Shown here: in pieces, positions 3,673 to 36,000 of the stretch
Layout of the letters: every line of letters begins with the position of its first letter
How positions within the stretch are numbered: position 1 is the first letter of the stretch
Origin: Planctomycetales bacterium
GTDB lineage: Bacteria > Planctomycetota > Phycisphaerae > SM23-33
Direction of reading: 5' to 3'
NCBI GenBank assembly: GCA_030612725.1
Contig: JAUWNJ010000001.1
Span: 134,648 to 198,647, forward strand
DNA: 64,000 nt
Position numbers and translations under genes: made by a program
The notes under the pieces: generated by a model
Databases searched by the model: none
The model's input: the letters and a program-made list of their open reading frames with translations, nothing else
What the model was told of the DNA's origin: nothing

Positions 3673-3716
3673 AGGGGGTTACAATGTCTGGGCACTTCCC
3701 TATTGGCCCACGAGCG
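3673..3716. repeat. Right copy of the split palindromic element (blocks C+, B+, A+)
   Basis: GGGGGTTAC-AATGTCT-GGGCACTTCC-CTATTGGCCCACGAGCGG. Together with 2509-2555 it reconstitutes C-B-A-B'-C' if the intervening 1.1 kb is removed. Confidence 0.55.
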
Positions 3717-3735
3717 GTTTTGAGGTAATAGATGG

Positions 3736-3953
3736 CATGATGGATAAATACGAGATAATCATTTTCTGGAGCGAGGAAGACAAGGCATATATCGCCGAGG
3801 TTCCTGAACTACCGGGCTGCATGGCCCACTGGCGACAGTCATGAGGCCGCTTTGGCCAATATCCGCTCGGCAGTGGAATTATGGATTGAAACCGCCAGGG
3901 AATTCGGCGACCCGATCCCCGAACCCAAAGGCCATCGGCTCGTCTTCGCGTAG
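3736..3953 (+). pseudogene. HicB-family (UPF0150) antitoxin remnant with a +1 frameshift; no hicA partner seen
   Basis: MMDKYEIIIFWSEEDKAYIAEVPELPGCMAH then TGA. The next frame continues (G)DSHEAALANIRSAVELWIETAREFGDPIPEPKG, the canonical HicB core. One extra T in CAC-T-GGCGAC breaks the frame. Confidence 0.5.
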
Positions 3954-3987
3954 AAATTAGTCGCTGTGGTTGCGGTGCTCGATCCGA

Positions 3988-4809
3988 TCAATCATCTTTT
4001 TTTGGTTTTTCCAGCAGCATTTTCTTCAGCAGTTTCGGTACGCCCATTTTCAATCGACCGGCGAAAGTAAATTTCTGACGTTGCCTGCTGATGATTCTCC
4101 GGGCGAAGGCCTTTGCTACTCCTTTTCCGTCGGCGCGTGCGCGGACTTTGAACATCGCGGTCTTTCCGGACGGGATGGGTTTCAGGTCCGGCTCGTTAAT
4201 CCGCATAACTACTTCGTCGCCGTATTTCAGAGCGCCGCTGAGTTCCTCCAGCGGTAGTTCGAACGTGTTGGGGTTATCTACTTCGAAGGACAGTTCCATC
4301 CATGACGGCGGGCCTTTGATATACCTGACCTTGCGGAACCGCCAGGACGGTTTCCGAAACGCCGGCATCAGACCGTTGCGAGATACGCGCACAGGTATCT
4401 TCAGGCCTAGAAAATGAAACTTCGACTCGGTGCTGAACCGGTACGGAATTTCCTCTTTCGCGCGAATTTTCGATAACAGCGGCGCCAAATTCGCAAATTC
4501 CACTGAAACCGGTACGCGGACGATTGACGTCTTATTAGCGGGCAAATTCATGACGGGCGTCGGCAGCGCGCCGTGGACGATCTCCGTACCAGCGGACGTA
4601 ACCTGGTAATTCAGGCTCGAAAAATTGAGTTCGAAACCATTGGGGTTGGTTACCTTCATATCGAAGAGAAGATCGATCTTCTTGAAATCGAAACCCCCCA
4701 CGTCGATACTGTGAATCTTGACAATGGGCGGCTTGACGCAGCCGACCGAGACGCTCATCAATAAGGCTGCGACGATTGCGACTGACGCTCTTTGGCGTGT
4801 CGTTCTCAT
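3988..4809 (-). CDS. Lipoprotein with LEA14-like/WHy (LEA_2) domains
   Basis: Lipobox VSVGC. Two repeats resemble the NDR1/HIN1-like late-embryogenesis-abundant fold (IDVGGFDFKKIDLLFDMKVTNPN; SFEVDNPNTFELPLEELSGALKYGDEVV). Confidence 0.45.
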   Translation of the reverse strand: MRTTRQRASVAIVAALLMSVSVGCVKPPIVKIHSIDVGGFDFKKIDLLFDMKVTNPNGFELNFSSLNYQVTSAGTEIVHGALPTPVMNLPANKTSIVRVPVSVEFANLAPLLSKIRAKEEIPYRFSTESKFHFLGLKIPVRVSRNGLMPAFRKPSWRFRKVRYIKGPPSWMELSFEVDNPNTFELPLEELSGALKYGDEVVMRINEPDLKPIPSGKTAMFKVRARADGKGVAKAFARRIISRQRQKFTFAGRLKMGVPKLLKKMLLEKPKKDD

Positions 4810-4820
4810 CTTTTCGCCTC

Positions 4821-6896
4821 CTACTGGTTCGCCTGTCGAGTATAGTTCAACAATCCGCCGGCTGCGAGAATTTCACGCTGGCGGGCGCTGAGGTTGACCC
4901 GGCAGGTGAAATTGAAATCCTTTGTGGTGTTGCGGACGGTAACGGTTTCGGCGGAACCGACAACCTCTGCGACGTTTTCGATGATGAGTTGGTCGCCGGC
5001 GTCTATACGGTCGTAATCACCGGCCTGTTCGAAGGAAAGCGGCAGGATGGCGAAGTTGACCAGGTTTGCCTGGTGGATTCGCTCGATGGTTTTGGCGATA
5101 ACGACCCGGACGCCCAGGTACATCGGACACAGGGCTGCGTGCTCGCGCGACGAACCCTGCCCGTATGAATCGCCCGCGACGATAACGCCGCACCGCCCGG
5201 CCTGTTTGACCGACGTCGCACGTTCGGCGAAGGTTGGCTCGCCCGGTTCGTTCAGCGGCGCGAAGACGTGCTTTGCGTATTCCGGCACATTCGAGCGGAG
5301 TTTCAGCAGCGTCCCTGCCGGCATGATATGGTCGGTGGTAATCTTCTCGCCGACCTTGATGACGGTAACCCCGTCGATTTTTTCCGGCAGCGGTTCTCCG
5401 GCGGGCGGTTTGACGATTGTGGGGCCTCGAATAATTTTGACCTTGGCCGATTCGTCCGGCGGCAGCGGGGGGGTAATCATACCATCGTCAATCAGGAATT
5501 TTTCGACCTGCTGGATTTGCGGATACTCCGCAGACAGTTTTCGCGGGTCGGTGATTTCGCCCGTCAGGGCAGCAGCCACGGCGACCTCCGGCGAAACGAG
5601 ATATGTCTTGTCGCCCTTCGTTCCGGAGCGTCCGGCGAAGTTGCGGTTGAACGTCCGCAGGCTCAACCGACCGTCGCCCGGCGAGAAGCCCTGCCCGATG
5701 CAAGGTCCGCAACCACATTCCAGAATCCGCGCACCGGCGGCTACCATATCGCCCAGCGAACCGTTATCGACCAGCATCTTCAGCACCTGGCGGCTGCCCG
5801 GCGCGATGCCGAGTTCCACACGCGGGTGGACCTTGCGACCCTTAAGCACGGCTGCACACAACATCAGATCGCGAAGGCTGGAATTCGTACACGAACCGAT
5901 AAGCACCTGGTCCACCTTCGTTCCGGCCAGGTCGGTTATGGTTACGACGTTTCCCGGAGACGACGGCGCAGCGGCCATGGGTACGACGTCGGATAAGTCG
6001 ATTACGACCCTGCTGAAACTTACGCTGACCATACCGTCGTCTGGTTCGGATATTTCCGCGTCGGGGCAGTGCCTGCGGATGTTCTCGATAACGGCTGCGT
6101 CCTGCTCGGCGTCGAGGCGCTTGGTTATCCGGTCGTACTCGGCGTCGGCATCGGCCGACAGTGCGGTGAACTGCTCGGTACGTTCCTGGGCGGCGAGAAA
6201 AGCCTGCGTTGCCTCGTCGGACGGGAAAACACTGGTCGTTACGCCCAATTCCGCGCCCATGTTGGTACAGGTCGCACGGGCAGGAACCGAAAGCGACGCA
6301 ACGCCTTCGCCGCAGTATTCGACCACCGCGCCGACGTTGCCGCGAGTTGTCATAATGCTCAGCAGTTTCAGAATAATGTCCTTGGGCGTAACCCAATCGC
6401 TCAATCGGCCTTGGAGTTCCACAGCCACAACGGCTGGGCTTGTCAGATAGAACGCTCCGCCTCCCATTGCCACAGATACGTCAAGCCCTCCGGCTCCGAT
6501 TGCCAGAGCGCCTATTCCCCCGGCGGTGGGCGTATGCGAGTCGCTGCCAAGGAGCGTCCTGCCCGGCGCGGCGAATCGCTCAAGATGAACCTGGTGGCAG
6601 ATACCGTTACCGGGTCGGCTGTGATACGCCCCGACTTTCGCGGCTACGGACTGGAGGTACAAATGGTCGTTGTGGTTTTCGGGTCCGAACTGGGACATGT
6701 TGTGGTCCACGTAGCTGACCGACATCTCCGTCCGGACGCGCGGTACGCCCATCGCCTCGAACAGCAGGAATGCCGTCGTACCGGTGGCGTCCTGCGTGAG
6801 TGTCTGGTCGATGCGGATACCGATTTCTTCGCCGGTCTCCAGTTCGCCGTCAACGACGTGGGCGGCGAGAATCTTTTCCGTTAGTGTGCCTTGCAT
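4821..6896 (-). CDS. Aconitase-family hydratase (691 aa, catalytic plus swivel domains fused)
   Basis: Aconitase signatures GSDSHT, ILECGCGPCIGQG and SGTKGDKTYLVSPEVAVAAALTG; C-terminal swivel-domain-like region. Confidence 0.8.
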   Translation of the reverse strand: MQGTLTEKILAAHVVDGELETGEEIGIRIDQTLTQDATGTTAFLLFEAMGVPRVRTEMSVSYVDHNMSQFGPENHNDHLYLQSVAAKVGAYHSRPGNGICHQVHLERFAAPGRTLLGSDSHTPTAGGIGALAIGAGGLDVSVAMGGGAFYLTSPAVVAVELQGRLSDWVTPKDIILKLLSIMTTRGNVGAVVEYCGEGVASLSVPARATCTNMGAELGVTTSVFPSDEATQAFLAAQERTEQFTALSADADAEYDRITKRLDAEQDAAVIENIRRHCPDAEISEPDDGMVSVSFSRVVIDLSDVVPMAAAPSSPGNVVTITDLAGTKVDQVLIGSCTNSSLRDLMLCAAVLKGRKVHPRVELGIAPGSRQVLKMLVDNGSLGDMVAAGARILECGCGPCIGQGFSPGDGRLSLRTFNRNFAGRSGTKGDKTYLVSPEVAVAAALTGEITDPRKLSAEYPQIQQVEKFLIDDGMITPPLPPDESAKVKIIRGPTIVKPPAGEPLPEKIDGVTVIKVGEKITTDHIMPAGTLLKLRSNVPEYAKHVFAPLNEPGEPTFAERATSVKQAGRCGVIVAGDSYGQGSSREHAALCPMYLGVRVVIAKTIERIHQANLVNFAILPLSFEQAGDYDRIDAGDQLIIENVAEVVGSAETVTVRNTTKDFNFTCRVNLSARQREILAAGGLLNYTRQANQ

Positions 6897-6931: not shown

Positions 6932-7690
6932 TTACCGGTTGCGACGGTATGTTTTTCTCGGTGGTGTTCCGTTCCAGTGTTCCAGCCAGAATTTCATCGC
7001 CACTTCCGGGTGCCGTTCATGCCCGCTGCCGGGAATGACTTTGGTGGTAACTTTGAAACCCGCCGATCGTAGGTAAGCGATGCCCTTCTCTGATTGGTCC
7101 TTAATCGTGCCCAGGTCGTTCTGGGTATAATAGACCATCACAGGCGTCTTGACGGCTTCGGGCGGATACCATCCGTCCAGTGCGTTGCGATTGAAATTAC
7201 CGCTGCGTGATACAACGACGGAGAAAATGTCCGGATGCCTCATCCCGATGAAATAGACTGGGAACCCTCCACCGGAGAATCCCGTCATCATAATGTTCCG
7301 CCGGTCGATGTTGTAGATGTAGTGCATCTGCCCGATAATGCTCATAATCAGGCATTCGTCGCGCAGGAGTTGATTGATGTCGCCTGCGCCGAGTATCCCG
7401 TCGGTGCTGGTGAGTTTCGGGCAGATGAGGAGACATCCGTAATTTTCGGCCAGCATCTTCCATTCACCGACATGGTGAGCGGCTACGTCGAACGGGGCGG
7501 TTCCGTGGCAGGAGACGATTACCGGCGTGGGTCTGTCACGACGGTAGGTGCTAGGGACGTAAAGGTAATACAGTCTTCCGGTAATAGGCTCGACCAGAAG
7601 CCTGGGGTCAACAGGCGTATTCTGATCCTGGGGCACGGCACAGCCTGCCAGGCACAACAAGACCAAACATATTGTCAGGAAAATACGCAT
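6932..7690 (-). CDS. Alpha/beta-hydrolase lipoprotein of the esterase/PHB-depolymerase family
   Basis: Lipobox LAGCAV; nucleophile elbow GFSGGG; HGTAP near the N-terminus, typical of the esterase_phb family. Confidence 0.6.
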   Translation of the reverse strand: MRIFLTICLVLLCLAGCAVPQDQNTPVDPRLLVEPITGRLYYLYVPSTYRRDRPTPVIVSCHGTAPFDVAAHHVGEWKMLAENYGCLLICPKLTSTDGILGAGDINQLLRDECLIMSIIGQMHYIYNIDRRNIMMTGFSGGGFPVYFIGMRHPDIFSVVVSRSGNFNRNALDGWYPPEAVKTPVMVYYTQNDLGTIKDQSEKGIAYLRSAGFKVTTKVIPGSGHERHPEVAMKFWLEHWNGTPPRKTYRRNR

Positions 7691-8036
7691 CTCATTCGCG
7701 CTCGCACATTTATTTGTCCGGATGCCTTCGTGTGAACATAAGGTAATATAAAATCACGCCGCCAAAAAGCAAGCGCCGATGGAGCGCAGCATCGTCATCG
7801 GCATAGAGATATTTCCGCGTTGACTGGTCATAAATATTCACGATGTGATCAAAAAAACATCCGACAAAAAATCTTCAACGCATTTGTGCTAAAGTGAAGG
7901 CGCGCTTTGTGTCGAAAAAATTTTTAGTTAAAAGATTTTTTATGTTTGGAAAAAGTAAGCAGTCTGTGTAAAAAACTATTACGTGGTTTAATGGAAAACT
8001 TTTTTGGAAACACCTAACCCGAGAGGAGGTGGCAAA

Positions 8037-8252
8037 ATGGCAAAGAAGAAAGCCAAAAAGAAAGCCACGAAGAAGAAGGTAGCAAAGAAGACGACGACGA
8101 AGAAAAAAGCAACAAAGAAGAAAGTAGCAAAGAAAAAGGTAGCGAAGAAAAAAGTGGTAAAGAAAAAAGTGGTAAAGAAAAAAGCCACGAAGAAGAAAGT
8201 GGCGAAGAAAAAAACCGCAAAGAAAAAAGTAGCGAAGAAGAAAAAGAGATAA
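8037..8252 (+). CDS. Lysine-rich histone H1-like nucleoid protein
   Basis: MAKKKAKKKATKKKVAKKTTTKKKATKKKVAKKKVAKKKVVKKK... (about 45% Lys, tandem KKKAxKKKVA repeats). GGAGG sits 6 nt before ATG 8037. The upstream region 7700-8030 is AT-rich. Confidence 0.7.
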   Translation: MAKKKAKKKATKKKVAKKTTTKKKATKKKVAKKKVAKKKVVKKKVVKKKATKKKVAKKKTAKKKVAKKKKR

Positions 8253-8305
8253 GTTCCACGGTTGAAAACAGCCGGAACGAAACATACGAGACCTGAAAGG
8301 GTTTC

Positions 8306-9358
8306 GTGAGCAGCAGGCGCCCTTGCCACGGCGGTGCCTGCTGCTTTTTTTATGCGCTTCGTAACACGAGCGAGACACCCGCGGGCACGTATGAACTTGC
8401 AGGGTCGGCAAACGGGCCTATAATATCGTGCGTGCGAACAATCGCTATAACCAACCAAAAAGGCGGCGTGGGAAAGACCACAACGACCGCCAATCTCGGT
8501 GCGGCCTTGGCTGGACGCGGAAAAAACGTCTGCCTTATCGATCTGGACCCGCAGGCACACCTCGCGATGCACTTCGGTATCGACCCGAAGACGACACAGG
8601 CGAGTATGTACGACGTCCTTACCTCCGATACGCCACTTACTCGCGCTGCCGTCGGCATCGAAAAAAACCTGACAGTCGTCCCGTCGGTAATCGACCTTGC
8701 AGCCGCCGAGGTCGAACTCGCCGGGGCCGTCGGGCGCGAGCAGATACTCCGCGACCGTATCACCGAAGAAAATCTACCGTACGATCTTATAATAATCGAC
8801 TGCCCGCCAAGCCTGGGTCTGCTGACGCTCAACTCGCTTGCAGCGGCGGACGAAGTCCTTATCCCGCTCCAGCCTCACTTCCTCGCCCTCCAGGGACTCG
8901 GACAACTCCTGGAGACCGTCTCGCTGGTGCGTCGTCGGATCAACCCGTCCCTGACCGTCGCCGGCGTAATCTTCTGCATGTTCGAGACCGGAACCCGCCT
9001 GTCGGGTGAAGTAGTCGATGACGTGCGGAACTTTTTCGCATCCGCGCGAGGCGGCGACGCGCCGTGGTCGCAGACGCATATTTTCCAGACTCGCATCCGA
9101 CGCAACGTCAAACTCGCAGAGTGCCCCAGTTACGGAACGACCATCTGGAATTACGACCCGTTGAGCCACGGGGCTGAAGACTACGCCGCTCTGGCAGATG
9201 AATTCCTGACCGCATTTATTAACGACGACGAAAATAACGCCGAGCAGGTAGAGCAGGACACCGCTATCGAGGTCGGTGAACCGGCTGTCGCCGGTGATGA
9301 AGCCGCCGCCGAACCTGTCGAACCGCAGGCAGCTCAATCCGCCGATACGCCACAATGA
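8306..9358 (+). CDS. ParA/Soj-family P-loop ATPase with an acidic C-terminal extension; no parB nearby
   Basis: Deviant Walker A KGGVGKTTTTANL; motifs DLDPQ and IIDCPPSLG; C-terminal tail DDENNAEQVEQDTAIEVGEPAVAGDEAAAEPVEP. The start codon is uncertain, since the conserved core begins around residue 43. Confidence 0.75.
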   Translation: MSSRRPCHGGACCFFYALRNTSETPAGTYELAGSANGPIISCVRTIAITNQKGGVGKTTTTANLGAALAGRGKNVCLIDLDPQAHLAMHFGIDPKTTQASMYDVLTSDTPLTRAAVGIEKNLTVVPSVIDLAAAEVELAGAVGREQILRDRITEENLPYDLIIIDCPPSLGLLTLNSLAAADEVLIPLQPHFLALQGLGQLLETVSLVRRRINPSLTVAGVIFCMFETGTRLSGEVVDDVRNFFASARGGDAPWSQTHIFQTRIRRNVKLAECPSYGTTIWNYDPLSHGAEDYAALADEFLTAFINDDENNAEQVEQDTAIEVGEPAVAGDEAAAEPVEPQAAQSADTPQ

Positions 9359-9750
9359 CCAGACCTTCGCACATCATGCGCCGTCGGCTAGTCCTGTCAG
9401 CCTGTCTTATCGTCTGGGCCGGCGCGCTTATCGCCACTCACCTTCCCGCCGACCGACTGCCGATGGCGGGCGTCTCCGATAAGTTGCTCCATGCCGCCGG
9501 TTACTTCGTCATTTCCGGTTTGTTCTGGTTGACGTTGCGGGTTCACGGAGTTGCAGCGGGCAAACGCATCGCCCTTGTCTTTTTCACAATGCTCGCCTAT
9601 GCCGCAATTGACGAGATAACCCAGCCACTGGTCGGAAGGGATAATTCCCTCGGAGATTGGTTTGCCGACGCAACGGGCATGATTATCGCGCTGATACTTC
9701 TGGAATTGCTGACATTGGCCAGATCATGGTCGCCGCGACGGAAGAAATAA
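9355..9750 (+). CDS. VanZ-like membrane protein
   Basis: Small polytopic protein with the HxxGY and DExxQ pattern of the VanZ family (LHAAGYFVISG...AAIDEITQ). It overlaps the parA-like stop (ATGA), suggesting translational coupling. Confidence 0.5.
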   Translation: MTRPSHIMRRRLVLSACLIVWAGALIATHLPADRLPMAGVSDKLLHAAGYFVISGLFWLTLRVHGVAAGKRIALVFFTMLAYAAIDEITQPLVGRDNSLGDWFADATGMIIALILLELLTLARSWSPRRKK

Positions 9751-33061: not shown

Positions 33062-36000
33062 TCAACTGCATCCCAACGATGCGCCACAGTTAAAGCATTT
33101 ATAACAGTTCCCGTTTCGTACCGTAATCGCTCCGCATACGTCGCATGGCGGGGCGTCCTCCTGGAAATGTGAGAACTGCTGATCGATACGATTGATGGTA
33201 CGCACTGCCTTCATTTTCTCAAGCCCAGCCGCTGTAAGATCGTCCGGATTGTGGTCGTTTTCGCCGTTTCCGCCGTCACCACCTGTAAGTAAATCGGCGC
33301 CGGGGGCCGGTACATCCTTGCTGCCGGTCCGGCCGGCGCCTCGCATCCCGGGGGCTGAATCATCCTTGCTGCCACCCGCAGAAACCGGAACTGTTGACCC
33401 GCCGCGACCTGCCGTGCGACCCGTCGCGGTAGTCATACCGGTTTGGTTCAAAAAATTCATGTCCAACCAGCGGAATATATAATCAACGATACTCTTGGCG
33501 AACGGGATGTCCGGATTTGCGGTCATTCCGCCCGGTTCGAAACGCTGGTGCGAGAATTTTCTCGTCAAAGCGTCCAGCGGGACGCCGTACTGGAGGCACA
33601 GGCTGATTGCCGTTGCGAATGCGTCCATCATTCCGCCGACGGTCGAACCTTCCTTGGCCATTGTGATGAACACCTCGCCTGGAACACCGTCGTCGTGCAG
33701 TCCGACGGTTATGTACCCCTCGTGCCCGCCGACCTCGAACTTATGAGTCAGCGACTGGCGAGTCGCCGGAAGACGACGCCGGCGGGGGAGCGGCTTGGAC
33801 GAAGAAGTTTCGACTTTGGTTTTTTCAGGCTCCTCGACCTCTTCGTCGTCTTTTTTCAGGTTCAAAGGTTGGGAAACCTTTGAACCGTCGCGATAGATAG
33901 CAACGGCTTTGAGTCCCATCTTCCATCCGCTGATGAAAGCGTCACGAATATCATCGACGGTCGAATCTTTGGGCATGTTGACGGTCTTTGAGATCGCCCC
34001 GGACAGGAAAGGCTGGACCGCCGCCATCATTCGCAGGTGCCCGGTGTAGTGGATGGATCGGTTGCCGTTGACCGGCTTGAAGGCGCAATCGAATATCGCC
34101 AGATGCTTTTCATTCATATCGGGCGCCCCTTCGATTGTGTCGTTTTCTTCGATGTGCTGGAGTATCCGCCCGATCTGCTCCTTACTGTACTCAAGCCTCT
34201 CCAGCGCCAGCGGGACGGTCTGGTTGACGAGTTTGAACATTCCCCCACCGGCCAGTATCTTATACTTCACCAGCGCGATGTCAGGCTCAACACCGGTAGT
34301 GTCGCAGTCCATCAGGAACCCGATCGTACCGGTCGGCGCAAGCAATGTAGCCTGTGCGTTTCGGTATCCGCTGGTCAGACCGGCTGCGATTGCTTCGTCC
34401 CAACCGGTGCGGGCAGCGTCGATCATCTCGGTCGGGCAGGCCGAGCGGTCTATGTCCTCGACTGCCTGACGGTGCATCCGCATCACGTTAATCATCGCTC
34501 GTCGGTTAGGGGCGAACTCCGGGAACGGACCGATCTGACTGGCGAGTTCGGCGCTGGTTGCGTATGCTTCTGCCGTCATTATCGCCGTTATGGCGGCGGC
34601 TACGGCGCGTCCGGGATCGCTGTCGTATGCCCATCCAAGACTCATAATCAGCGCGCCGAGGTTCGCATAACCAAGCCCCAGCGGGCGGAACTCGTGACTG
34701 TTGCGGCAAATCTTCTCCGTCGGATAACTGGCGTGATCTATTATCGTCTCCTGGGCGATAATGAATATCCTCGCGGCGCGACGGAAACCGTCTATATCAA
34801 ACGAACCGTCCGCCTGGCGGAACTTCATCAGGTTGATACTCGCAAGGTTGCACGCAGAATCGTCAAGGAACATATACTCGCTGCACGGGTTGGAGGCGTT
34901 TATCCGACCGCTGACCGGGCAGGTGTGCCAATCGTTAATTGTCGTGTCGTACTGCACGCCCGGATCGCCGCAGAGATGGCAACTCGAAGCCATTTTTTTG
35001 AGCAACTCGGCTGCACGATACCGACCTGTTACCTTCTCGGGATCAGTAACAGCGTGCGTGCACCATTCCCGGTCGTTCTGGGCGGCCTGGAGAAAATCCT
35101 CCGTCAATCGAATCGACAGATTGGAGTTCTGGTACATCACCGTCCCGTAGGCTTCGCCGTTGTAATCGCCGTCGTAACCGGCGTCTATAAGCGCCCAGGC
35201 CTTCTTTTCCTCTTTGGCTTTGCACTCGATAAATTCGAGGATGTCCGGATGGTCGCATCTTAGCGATTGCATCTTGGCGGCCCGGCGGGTCTTACCACCG
35301 GACTTGACGACGGCGGCTATCTGGTCGAAGACGCGCATGAAACTCAACGGACCGGAAGGAATCCCGCCGCCGGAAAGTTTCTCCTTGCTCGACCGAAGCG
35401 TCGAGAGGTCCGTTCCCGTCCCGGAACCATACTTGAAGAGCATCGCCTCCGAAGCCGCCAGGCGCATGATGTCTTCCATCGTGTCATCGACGCTCTGGAT
35501 AAAACAGGCTGAACACTGCGGGTATTTATAACCCTGAAGCGTCTTGGCCGGCGATTTGCTCTGCTTGTCCCAATGGAAATTACCTTCCGAACCTTCCACG
35601 CCTTTGACGTGGAAAAGCCCTACGTTGAACCATACCGGGGAATTGAACGCCCCGTACTGATTCAGGCACAACCAGGACAATTCGTCATGGAAAGCATCGG
35701 CGTCGGCGTCGGAAGCGAAGACGCCGTCCTCGCGCGCCCAGTCGGCGATGGTCCGGCTGACACGGTGAATCAACTCCCGCACCGATTTTTCGCGCTCCGG
35801 CGTATCCTGCTCGCCGAAGAAATATTTACTGACGACGACGTTTGTAGCCAATTGGCTCCACTGTTCGGGAACCTCCACGTCGTTCTGTTCGAAGATAACT
35901 TCTCCGTTTTCGTCTTTGATGGAGGCAGAGCGTTTCTCCCAGGTTATCTGTTCGAAGGGATCGACCCCTTCGGGGCAGAAATGCCTTTCCACCCGAAGCC

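Follow-up and report, generated by a model that had tools for sequence, protein, structure and literature searches.

Planctomycetes attract study because their nucleoids are condensed and their unusual cell cycle proceeds without FtsZ; to our knowledge, the machinery that segregates their chromosomes is all but uncharacterised. In the 64-kb stretch of planctomycete DNA analysed here (the window), a gene for a very lysine-rich peptide is followed by genes for a ParA-type ATPase and a VanZ-family membrane protein. The question raised by this locus is whether these neighbours act together, and if so on what. The original prediction was that they could be a nucleoid compaction and positioning module, which they may be. 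The reading preferred here, to which we assign a probability of about 0.55, is that a nucleoid polycation of the Hc2/H1-like kind is encoded beside a chromosomal parA-vanZ operon, the two forming separate transcription units whose products would be coupled via the surface of the nucleoid.

The polylysine gene and its expression signals

The polylysine gene (8037..8252, + strand) starts with ATG and encodes a 71-aa, 8.1-kDa product, MAKKKAKKKATKKKVAKK...KKKKR, with 42 K, one R, and neither D nor E (59% Lys, pI ~12). A lysine-rich gene had been predicted here and is present, with a size and content other than those proposed (72 aa and ~45% Lys). Beyond an initial MA there is no non-repeat part: the pentapeptide K-K-K-[V/T/A]-A, repeated about 14 times, makes up the protein and shows in the DNA as a 15-nt period with 13.8 copies. 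Despite the 42 Lys codons, the longest A-run is only 7. MAKKKA-type ORFs of this sort lie 5′ of parA in 14 Phycisphaerae-type places (the window, 12 DNA-distinct loci, and the duplicate L162), all of which keep the Shine-Dalgarno (SD) sequence, ATG, lysine frame and stop codon with differing nucleotide sequences; indels among the compared ORFs are multiples of 3, and the products range from 18 to 85 aa. By these signs the ORF is a real gene, conserved and of the Hc2/BpH1/H1 compositional type, as had been proposed. Minus-strand ORFs at 7875-8411 and 7988-8572 were discarded as antisense artefacts of the lysine repeat.

These proteins are invisible to HMM searches. A homology search with the window's peptide returned 8000 word-sharing candidates and no significant match, an effect of low-complexity bias, and none of five orthologues looked up by exact sequence was present in a collection of 15 billion proteins. 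The only profile resemblances are to Pfam HC2 (PF07382; E = 0.057, 14 bits against a cutoff of 40) and NCBIfam hist_H1_lk_Burk (NF038053; E = 0.57, 10.4 bits against a cutoff of 80), both far below threshold and compositional. As in Chlamydia Hc2 (HctB) and the Bordetella BpH1/Burkholderia H1-like proteins, lysine-rich pentapeptides follow one another, with A, V, T or P at the remaining positions, and acidic residues are absent; the length polymorphism by repeat number is also shared, Hc2 and BpH1 being polymorphic through gain or loss of lysine-rich pentamers (PMC2848022). Those proteins are, however, longer (150-237 aa, against 18-85 aa here); each of their pentamers bears two positive charges, and their N- and C-terminal regions are conserved and non-repetitive, whereas the peptides described here have three lysines per pentamer and no non-repeat flanks. 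Chlamydiae belong to the same PVC superphylum as the planctomycetes. We know of no linkage to parA of hctB or bpH1, nor of AlgP, another H1-like protein discussed below.

A putative promoter can be read upstream of the gene at 7946..7974 (+ strand; TTGGAA at 7946-7951, a 17-nt spacer, and TAAAAA at 7969-7974). In the relatives it takes the form CTTGCA-N17-(G)TGTAAAAA, with a GTCGAGAAAAAnTTT block upstream, and both hexamers and block are positionally conserved across 12 loci. An upstream TTACGTGG motif was considered as a parS half-site and rejected, being non-palindromic and without a parS-like match. The predicted AT-rich leader with a consensus GGAGG was recovered: GC content is 40% over 7691-8036, compared with 56% for the window, and GGAGG lies at 8025..8029 (+ strand), 7 nt 5′ of the ATG, with (A/G)GGAGGTG kept at this position in 12 of 14 loci. 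After the stop codon come two 3′-UTR hairpins (8253-8278 and 8286-8307, + strand), similar pairs of which occur in L161, L164, L171, and L172 with changes on both stem sides (judged by eye), and then an intrinsic terminator (8308..8353, + strand), whose GC-rich stem of 14 bp bears a conserved GCCACGGCG at its apex and leads into T7. This 108-nt 3′ region is predicted to fold with -52.8 kcal/mol (fold z = -6.8), and compensatory changes are found in 8 of 15 terminator pairs across 14 loci. An Rfam search of 7600-8500 matched no family, which sets the conserved hairpin apart from known RNAs. The window has three further copies of GCCACGGCG, none of them in a hairpin of this kind, and the idea that it marks a genome-wide terminator family was therefore rejected.

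Between the polylysine gene and the parA start there is a 179-nt spacer with the three hairpins and then a TTGCAG-N16-TATAAT promoter. The ATPase gene is therefore not "directly" downstream, as first described, and the idea of a single expression unit does not survive, since a terminator and a separate promoter stand between the genes. Its own conserved promoter, its SD sequence and the covarying terminator indicate that the polylysine gene is not co-transcribed with parA; it would be monocistronic, with signals consistent with strong expression.

A short ORF followed by three hairpins and a terminator just 5′ of parA might also be read as a cis-regulatory leader peptide, the translation of which, sensitive to Lys-tRNA or to stalling, would control termination and hence parA. 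This seems extremely improbable. A conserved TATAAT lies between terminator and parA, with the parA start 7 nt away; the three hairpins fold independently, with no antiterminator pairing in either the MFE or the centroid structure; the ORF has a consensus SD, avoids long A-runs, and varies from 18 to 85 codons; and parA has no link to lysine metabolism. On these grounds the attenuator was rejected.

The parA-vanZ operon and the probable location of a parB

The parA promoter (8397..8424, + strand) consists of TTGCAG (8397-8402), a 16-nt spacer, and TATAAT (8419-8424). CTTGC...TATAAT is conserved ahead of parA in 11 of 14 loci; a simple promoter scan did not pick it up because the -35 element matches at only 3 of 6 positions. 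The gene itself (8432..9358, + strand; 308 aa) most likely begins with GTG at 8432 and not with the longest-ORF GTG at 8306, since a start there would make the terminator hairpin part of the coding sequence. Since GTG 8432 stands 7 nt after the -10 box, the parA mRNA is probably leaderless, and its start is probably mis-annotated in most database entries.

Judged by its alignments, the ATPase is a canonical Soj-type chromosomal ParA. It matches Pfam AAA_31 (3.9e-56) and CbiA (1.2e-22) and reaches none of the NCBIfam equivalog cutoffs. The best solved relative is the chromosomal ParA of M. xanthus (8RAY, 3e-59); Soj proteins of Thermus (1e-46 to 4.6e-46) and Helicobacter (1e-38) also match, and identity to ParAs with parB immediately downstream is 42-49%. 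The assignment to ParA/Soj and not Mrp/MinD, made in the original prediction, thus stands: defined chromosomal ParAs are closest, and MinD is far weaker (only ~1e-12 to 1e-14). A deviant Walker A motif, NQKGGVGKTTT, occupies residues 8-18, with K10 and K15 invariant in 41 family members; KGGVGKT, D37/D39, and D123 are invariant in the family. For non-specific DNA binding, the relevant basic residues are R189 and the PRNVR region of Soj: R224 and K227 align with basic residues of the latter, and an R189-type arginine is present, shifted by two positions in the alignment (GTRLS vs ARTNL), a displacement that tells against the preferred reading. In its fold family, deviant Walker A, catalytic aspartates, and ParB pocket the core (residues 1-261) resembles the chromosomal ParA/Soj proteins of M. 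xanthus, T. thermophilus, and H. pylori. It differs from them in having no adjoining parB, a Planctomycetota-type 11-aa insertion around residues 204-215 with an invariant Trp (W212), an acidic A/P/E-rich disordered tail, an apparently leaderless start, and coupling to a VanZ-family gene.

The ATPase had been called an orphan that lacks parB. In position this is correct: tblastn with seven ParBs found no parB in the 64-kb window or in 29 planctomycete loci, nor did Pfam on 26 window ORFs, and a search of the window for parS, TGTTTCACGTGAAACA, with up to 3 mismatches gave no match; all seven non-planctomycete control loci have ParB directly downstream of parA. In any other sense "orphan" is misleading, as the complete ParB-peptide pocket is kept. 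Its residues V94, L128, L130, L133, L165, and I170 correspond to V116, L150, L152, L155, L187, and L192 of M. xanthus ParA (five identical, one L to I), which have been shown by mutation to bind ParB (PMC12462528). This pocket, together with the lack of linkage between parA and parB at all Planctomycetota loci sampled, makes it likely that a ParB is encoded elsewhere in the genome, a conclusion that draws on the conservation of the pocket and on the ParB Pfam domain reported as chromosomally encoded in other Planctomycetes. Literature searches on planctomycete chromosomal ParB, acidic-tailed ParA, and the lysine repeat sequence yielded nothing specific. Taken together, the intact Walker A, catalytic aspartates, and ParB pocket, with the candidate DNA-binding basic positions, suggest a nucleoid-binding ATP dimer driven by a distant ParB.

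The VanZ-family gene (9355..9750, + strand) encodes a 131-aa membrane protein with four hydrophobic segments, as read from its sequence. Its ATG overlaps the parA TGA as ATGA, a conserved overlap in keeping with the predicted translational coupling, and it is found directly 3′ of parA in the window and in L001, L002, L003, L009, L161-L169, L171, and L172. The protein passes NCBIfam vanZ_1 (NF037970; 45.4 bits, cutoff 20) and falls under the cutoff of Pfam VanZ (21.5 bits, cutoff 30.1); it also contains DKxxH and DExxQ...R...D, which we take to be VanZ motifs. It is like the Enterococcus VanZ of teicoplanin resistance in being small and having four hydrophobic segments, but there is no van cluster here, and overlap with parA is no known VanZ context.

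Conservation of the arrangement and charge scaling

Among the fetched Phycisphaerae-type loci, 13 of 16 have MAKKKA-type ORFs (12 DNA-distinct loci plus the duplicate L162); L165 is cut inside the polylysine ORF. Positional orthologues were recorded in L001, L002, L006, L081, L161-L164, L166-L169, L171, and L172. None was found at ~150 other, non-Phycisphaerae parA loci (1.39 Mb scanned), and in the scanned loci such ORFs are confined to the position immediately 5′ of parA, in its orientation, so that among 172 loci they are exclusive to the Phycisphaerae-type parA family. The three-gene order of lysine-rich gene, parA, and vanZ, the conservation of which in relatives was to be checked, is thus kept in one Phycisphaerae-type group; a metagenome scan with the ParA sequence gave only two close loci. 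The 5′ neighbour of the pair varies (esterase, RNR, a hypothetical gene or trigger factor), L002 and L006 also have different genes downstream, and in L002, L006, and L171 the pair has stayed together although both flanks have changed. Part of the adjacency must be inherited order, since the neighbourhood of esterase, RNR, parA, vanZ, trpE, and ROK is syntenic in most loci.

The C-terminal tail of ParA (9215..9355, + strand; residues ~262-308) had been described as poly-acidic and about 45 aa long. That it is acidic is a family trait, 101 of 104 family tails carrying a net negative charge and an abundance of A, P, and E, with lengths of 29-170 aa; "poly-acidic" overstates a 47-49-aa segment that is better called acidic and disordered, with 13 D/E (27%), no K/R, a net charge of -13, and a predicted pLDDT below 55 from about residue 270. 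Acidic autoregulatory tails are found in SSB and HMGB1 as well as in Hfq. In E. coli Hfq, a disordered acidic C-terminal appendage reportedly autoregulates nucleic-acid binding by a core that binds through a basic surface (PMC5606850). By analogy, the lineage-specific ParA tail is most likely a DNA-mimicking, self-inhibitory or polycation-contacting appendage. Unlike tails of the Hfq type, it has a dedicated polycation gene adjoining, with charge scaling between the two.

Across loci, the positive charge of the peptide rises with the negative charge of the ParA tail (Spearman rho 0.76, n = 16, p = 7e-4). The correlation persists after collapsing cores more than 80% identical (rho 0.70) and under independent contrasts (r = 0.68, p = 0.004), with only 10 of 15 contrasts agreeing in a sign test; it lends some support to an electrostatic relationship. 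The retention of adjacency despite differing flanks, and the scaling of the charges, suggest functional coupling of peptide and ParA through the nucleoid surface, which is plausible on these comparisons.

The strongest competing view is that the neighbours are functionally unrelated. The peptide would then be a general polyanion binder (of ribosomes or rRNA, other RNA, or polyphosphate), or else a nucleoid protein independent of ParA; adjacency would be inherited, and the charge correlation would come from lineage or composition. Separate transcription units and the broad synteny fit this view, as do the related loci L003, L009, and L082, which have no polylysine ORF although two of the three keep acidic tails, and the strongly acidic tails of Planctomycetia ParAs (L007, -10; L013, -35) that have no such ORF adjoining. 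The 18-24-aa versions also resemble tiny basic ribosomal peptides, such as bL37 and bS22, in size and composition. Another candidate polyanion is suggested by P. aeruginosa AlgP, a lysine-rich H1-like protein with KPAA repeats which reportedly associates with polyphosphate granules and is linked to the spacing of this cargo (PMC9239181); AlgP is, however, much larger and has a non-repeat domain. Against this stand an adjacency that outlasts the replacement of both flanks, an ORF exclusive to one parA family, and a charge correlation that holds under independent contrasts; no ribosomal-protein model matched the peptide, and a peptide whose length differs five-fold between loci does not look like a structural ribosomal protein. 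We consider this view unlikely, while giving it appreciable weight.

A more intimate relationship can also be imagined, in which the peptide and the acidic tail are a dedicated, co-evolving electrostatic pair like the disordered complex of histone H1 and prothymosin-alpha, with the degree of nucleoid coating setting both the place and the strength of DNA binding by ParA, or the peptide even serving as a ParA adaptor. This extension of the coupling favoured here is doubtful, and any physical contact between peptide and ParA is presumed.

A further step would be a system independent of ParB, with the peptide itself as the partner of ParA, coating DNA or some other polyanionic cargo, capturing the ParA tail by electrostatic attraction and/or stimulating the ATPase, and with VanZ as a membrane anchor. 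ParB, McdB, and ParG all stimulate ParA-type ATPases with basic N-termini. The general finding that partners of these ATPases typically act via basic N-terminal peptides (PMC12462528) is in line with such a role, as are the lack of parB and parS in the 64 kb and of parB beside parA in any planctomycete locus sampled, the joint scaling of peptide and tail charges, and L006, where the shortest peptide (18 aa) accompanies a ParA with essentially no tail. This nevertheless appears somewhat less credible still: a fully conserved ParB-peptide pocket makes little sense unless there is a ParB-type amphipathic helix to bind, the peptide has none of the four spaced large hydrophobic residues that the pocket requires, its gene is transcribed separately, a ParB domain is reported from planctomycete chromosomes, and acidic tails exist without an adjoining polylysine ORF.

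Proposed nucleoid coating and ParA in planctomycetes

Under the preferred reading, coupling via the nucleoid surface, two adjacent and separate transcription units have been kept together in one Phycisphaerae-type clade. The first encodes a very small polycation, disordered throughout and made of KKK[V/T/A]A pentapeptides, whose repeat number drifts by slippage (18-85 aa); it would coat a polyanion, with chromosomal DNA the most probable one, neutralise its charge and compact the nucleoid in the manner of Chlamydia Hc2, Bordetella BpH1, and the tail of histone H1. The second unit, a probably leaderless parA-vanZ operon, would supply ParA, with ATP dimers bound to the nucleoid and a ParB from elsewhere in the genome driving them, and the acidic tail would tune how this ParA sits on polycation-coated DNA. 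That the peptide binds DNA, and that the tail and the VanZ-family protein have roles here, we infer.

From this locus come a family of extremely small polylysine proteins that had not been annotated before and a defined planctomycete variant of ParA, distinguished by its acidic tail, its internal insertion, and its apparently leaderless start. Were the coupling not real, a cleaner annotation of three genes would remain. It also leads to a hypothesis that is simple and can be tested: electrostatics may tune nucleoid coating and ParA binding to each other. If the coupling is true, a ParA gradient would be regulated in a new way; if peptide and tail are in addition an electrostatic pair, chromosome compaction would be coupled to partitioning in the FtsZ-less planctomycetes.

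The polylysine gene and its product

The lysine-rich gene (8037-8252, + strand) opens with ATG and encodes 71 aa (MAKKKAKKKATKKKVAKKTTTKKKATKKKVAKKKVAKKKVVKKKVVKKKATKKKVAKKKTAKKKVAKKKKR), including 42 Lys and one Arg but no acidic residues (pI about 12); at 59% Lys, this differs slightly from the 72 aa and about 45% Lys of the original prediction. It is a tandem array with a 15-nt (pentapeptide) period, 13.8 copies long. Although it has 42 Lys codons, its longest A-run is 7 nt, consistent with a translated ORF in which slippery poly(A) is avoided. The AT-rich leader with a consensus GGAGG was correctly predicted: this motif precedes the ATG by 7 nt, and the 346 nt (7691-8036) separating the gene from a divergent esterase gene are 40% GC, vs. 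56% for the window.

A GTCGAGAAAAAnTTT block and a promoter-like pair, CTTGCA-N17-(G)TGTAAAAA, recur ahead of the polylysine gene in twelve loci. The block (7895-7925 in the window, some 20-30 nt ahead of the -35; also in the parA loci L001, L002, L161, L164, L166, L167, L171, and L172 from other genomes) may be an UP element or regulator binding site. Two long Phe/Leu-rich minus-strand ORFs (7875-8411 and 7988-8572; 178 and 194 aa) were rejected as genes: each arises opposite the AAG/AAA repeat as an antisense artefact, open to being mis-called.

The peptide has no significant profile match in Pfam or NCBIfam; the only sub-threshold resemblances are to Pfam HC2 (E = 0.057; 14 bits, the cutoff being 40) and NCBIfam hist_H1_lk_Burk (E = 0.57). 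Searching for homologues by HMM or by shared words gave nothing significant, and the exact polylysine peptide sequences were not found in the protein collection. Chlamydia Hc2 and Bordetella BpH1 have lysine-rich pentamers, no acidic residues, and repeat-number polymorphism (PMC2848022). The peptide is like them in its pentamer architecture, lack of acidic residues, and variable repeat number, but is far smaller, lacks non-repeat domains, and carries three positive charges per pentamer rather than two. By this analogy it would resemble an H1/Hc2/protamine-type polycation in action, family membership not being demonstrable.

Signals around parA

The parA gene (8432-9358, + strand) had been placed directly downstream of the lysine-rich gene. 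The two are adjacent, but a terminator and then a separate promoter intervene, making them neighbours rather than a shared expression unit or operon. The 108 nt downstream of the polylysine stop codon form three hairpins (-52.8 kcal/mol; z = -6.8 vs. shuffles), the third of which (a 14-bp GC-rich stem, then T7) is an intrinsic terminator; when 14 related loci are aligned, two-sided changes preserve the pairing at 8 of the 15 stem pairs. The hairpin tip (GCCACGGCG, 8320-8335) is almost invariant in 12 of the 14, above a covarying stem. This conservation exceeds what a terminator needs, and the tip could act as a recognition loop for a protein or RNA; the window's other three copies of the tip 9-mer lie outside hairpins of this kind.

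With a terminator downstream of it, the polylysine ORF might be read as a leader-peptide attenuator. This is highly improbable; beyond the terminator stands the parA promoter, TTGCAG-N16-TATAAT (-10 box at 8419-8424), whose TATAAT and CTTGC -35 are kept in 11 of the 14 loci. Because the ParA frame opens at GTG 8432, 7 nt past the -10 box and without a Shine-Dalgarno site, the parA mRNA is most likely leaderless. Many database ParA homologues are annotated from an ATG within TATA-ATG of the -10 box ("MxxVRT..."; e.g., L161). The window has ATA at that position, so that the downstream GTG would be the true start, and the homologue starts inside the box are probably mis-called by three codons. 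TATAAT also just precedes the parA starts of L161, L164, L001, L169, L167, L171, and L172.

Coupling of parA to a VanZ-like protein was supported. The VanZ-family ORF (9355-9750, + strand; 131 aa) overlaps the parA stop (ATGA), and scores above the NCBIfam vanZ_1 cutoff (45.4 bits vs. 20) and under the Pfam gathering score (21.5 vs. 30.1). A VanZ gene also comes right after parA in L001, L002, L003, L009, L161-L169, L171, and L172, with an identical 4-nt overlap wherever the genes were called; it is not the next gene in L006, L082, L170 (the P0090 locus), or the P0054 locus.

ParA and the whereabouts of ParB

ParA (Pfam AAA_31, 3.9e-56; CbiA, 1.2e-22) groups as predicted with Soj/ParA, not Mrp or MinD. 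Its closest solved relative is PDB 8RAY (3e-59), the Myxococcus xanthus chromosomal ParA (PMC12462528), followed by a mycobacterial ParA-like protein, Thermus Soj, and Helicobacter Soj; MinD matches trail by about 45 orders of magnitude. The deviant Walker A motif (KGGVGKT), D37/D39, and D123 are all invariant. An AlphaFold2 model has a confident core (mean pLDDT 84.8, pTM 0.81), with pLDDT <55 from about residue 270.

An 11-aa insertion, ASARGGDAPWS (W212 invariant), is common to this ParA and a Pirellulales ParA. It lies at 9041-9076 (residues about 204-215); its GGDAPWS, with the invariant Trp, is found in Phycisphaerae and Pirellulales ParAs (e.g., L007), is partial in Brocadia (L016), and is missing from the compared ParAs of Firmicutes and M. 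xanthus. The C-terminal tail, predicted as poly-acidic and roughly 45 aa long, is acidic but not poly-acidic (47-49 aa, 13 D/E, no K/R). Across 104 family members the tails are 29-170 aa, A/P/E-rich, and net negative in 101, with no conserved sequence. Insertion and tail are both lineage-specific.

In a set of 80 genome loci, ParAs from outside the planctomycetes share 42-49% identity with that of the window, and each of the seven checked is followed immediately by ParB. In all of the sampled Planctomycetota loci, which come from Phycisphaerae, Pirellulales, Planctomycetaceae, and Brocadiia, parA lacks an adjacent parB. No ParB was found by tblastn (seven ParBs) in the 64-kb window or 29 planctomycete loci, no ParB domain by Pfam scans of 26 window ORFs, and no parS-like site in the window with up to 3 mismatches. 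The "orphan" description therefore holds by position, but is not peculiar to this locus.

The peptide might then be a ParA partner that replaces ParB. Mutagenesis assigned six M. xanthus ParA residues to the ParB-binding pocket (V116, L150, L152, L155, L187, and L192; PMC12462528), to which V94, L128, L130, L133, L165, and I170 align here. This intact pocket, and a preprint describing a chromosomally encoded ParB Pfam domain in Planctomycetes, point to a ParB elsewhere in the genome; replacement by the peptide seems quite unlikely.

Conservation and possible function

The H1-like/parA-like/vanZ arrangement recurs in relatives. Small K/R-rich, pentapeptide-only ORFs (MAKKKA.../MARKKA.../MKMAKKAA...) immediately precede parA in the same orientation, encoding 71 aa in the window, 85 in L163, 61 in L164 and L168, 59 in L161/L162 and L169, 41 in L172, 40 in L001, 31 in L081, 24 in L167, 21 in L166 and L171, 20 in L002, and 18 in L006. 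Their ParA cores are 56-81% identical to the window core. No such ORF was found in L003, L009, L082, or any Planctomycetia or Brocadiia locus fetched, and the MAKKKA-type motif occurs nowhere else in all 172 fetched loci (1.39 Mb). In L168 (4725-4881) the gene is apparently disrupted (consensus SD, MAKKKAI-stop, then an SD-less K-rich ORF, MKSKNKAKKK...), for which a frameshift, faulty assembly, or decay of this copy could account.

The upstream neighbour is an esterase in the window, ribonucleotide reductase (RNR) in L161, L163, L164, L166, L168, and L169, a hypothetical gene in L001 and L167, and trigger factor with or without ClpP in L002 and L171; downstream genes also differ in L002 and L006. 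Given these variable flanks, the adjacency is more than frozen synteny, which nonetheless contributes.

In most relatives a roughly 630-aa RNR gene separates esterase and polylysine genes (L161 2453-4333, L164 2461-4353); the window has just the AT-rich spacer there, and an RNR paralogue (29% identical) at about 33848-35557 (- strand). The trigger factor of L002, a Phycisphaerae MAG (3680-5431, - strand), has a long lysine/proline-rich C-terminal extension (…AKPPKAEAKKPKAEGKKPKAAKPPKKPSARPSAKKTPKADRGKDKGKARGKK), a further polycationic tail in this lineage.

Peptide K+R count correlates with ParA-tail net negative charge (Spearman 0.76, p = 7e-4, 16 loci; 0.70 once cores >80% identical are merged); with independent contrasts, computed over a neighbour-joining tree, r is 0.68 (p = 0.004), with sign agreement in just 10 of 15. 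The shortest peptide is that of L006, whose ParA has no tail. Strict pairing is argued against by the acidic tails of L003 and L009, where no peptide gene is adjacent, and by Planctomycetia tails, which can be very acidic (L013, -35) without one. The relationship is a lead, not a result. Peptide and ParA might instead be functionally unlinked, with RNA, ribosomes, or polyphosphate as the peptide's target; with these unpaired tails on one side and the recurrent adjacency on the other, we consider this rather unlikely, though less so than ParB replacement.

The account we favour, at a probability of about 0.55, is that the peptide would be a nucleoid-coating polycation, its expression signals being consistent with abundance, and ParA a standard segregation ATPase, nucleoid-bound and ParB-activated. 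The acidic tail would tune ParA's interaction with polycation-coated DNA, by self-inhibition or by contact with the peptide; VanZ, its production translationally coupled to that of ParA, may have a membrane-related role. The locus is built of recognisable parts, "module" naming a putative function. The finding is real, and its conservation is better than a sequence-only reading could reveal.
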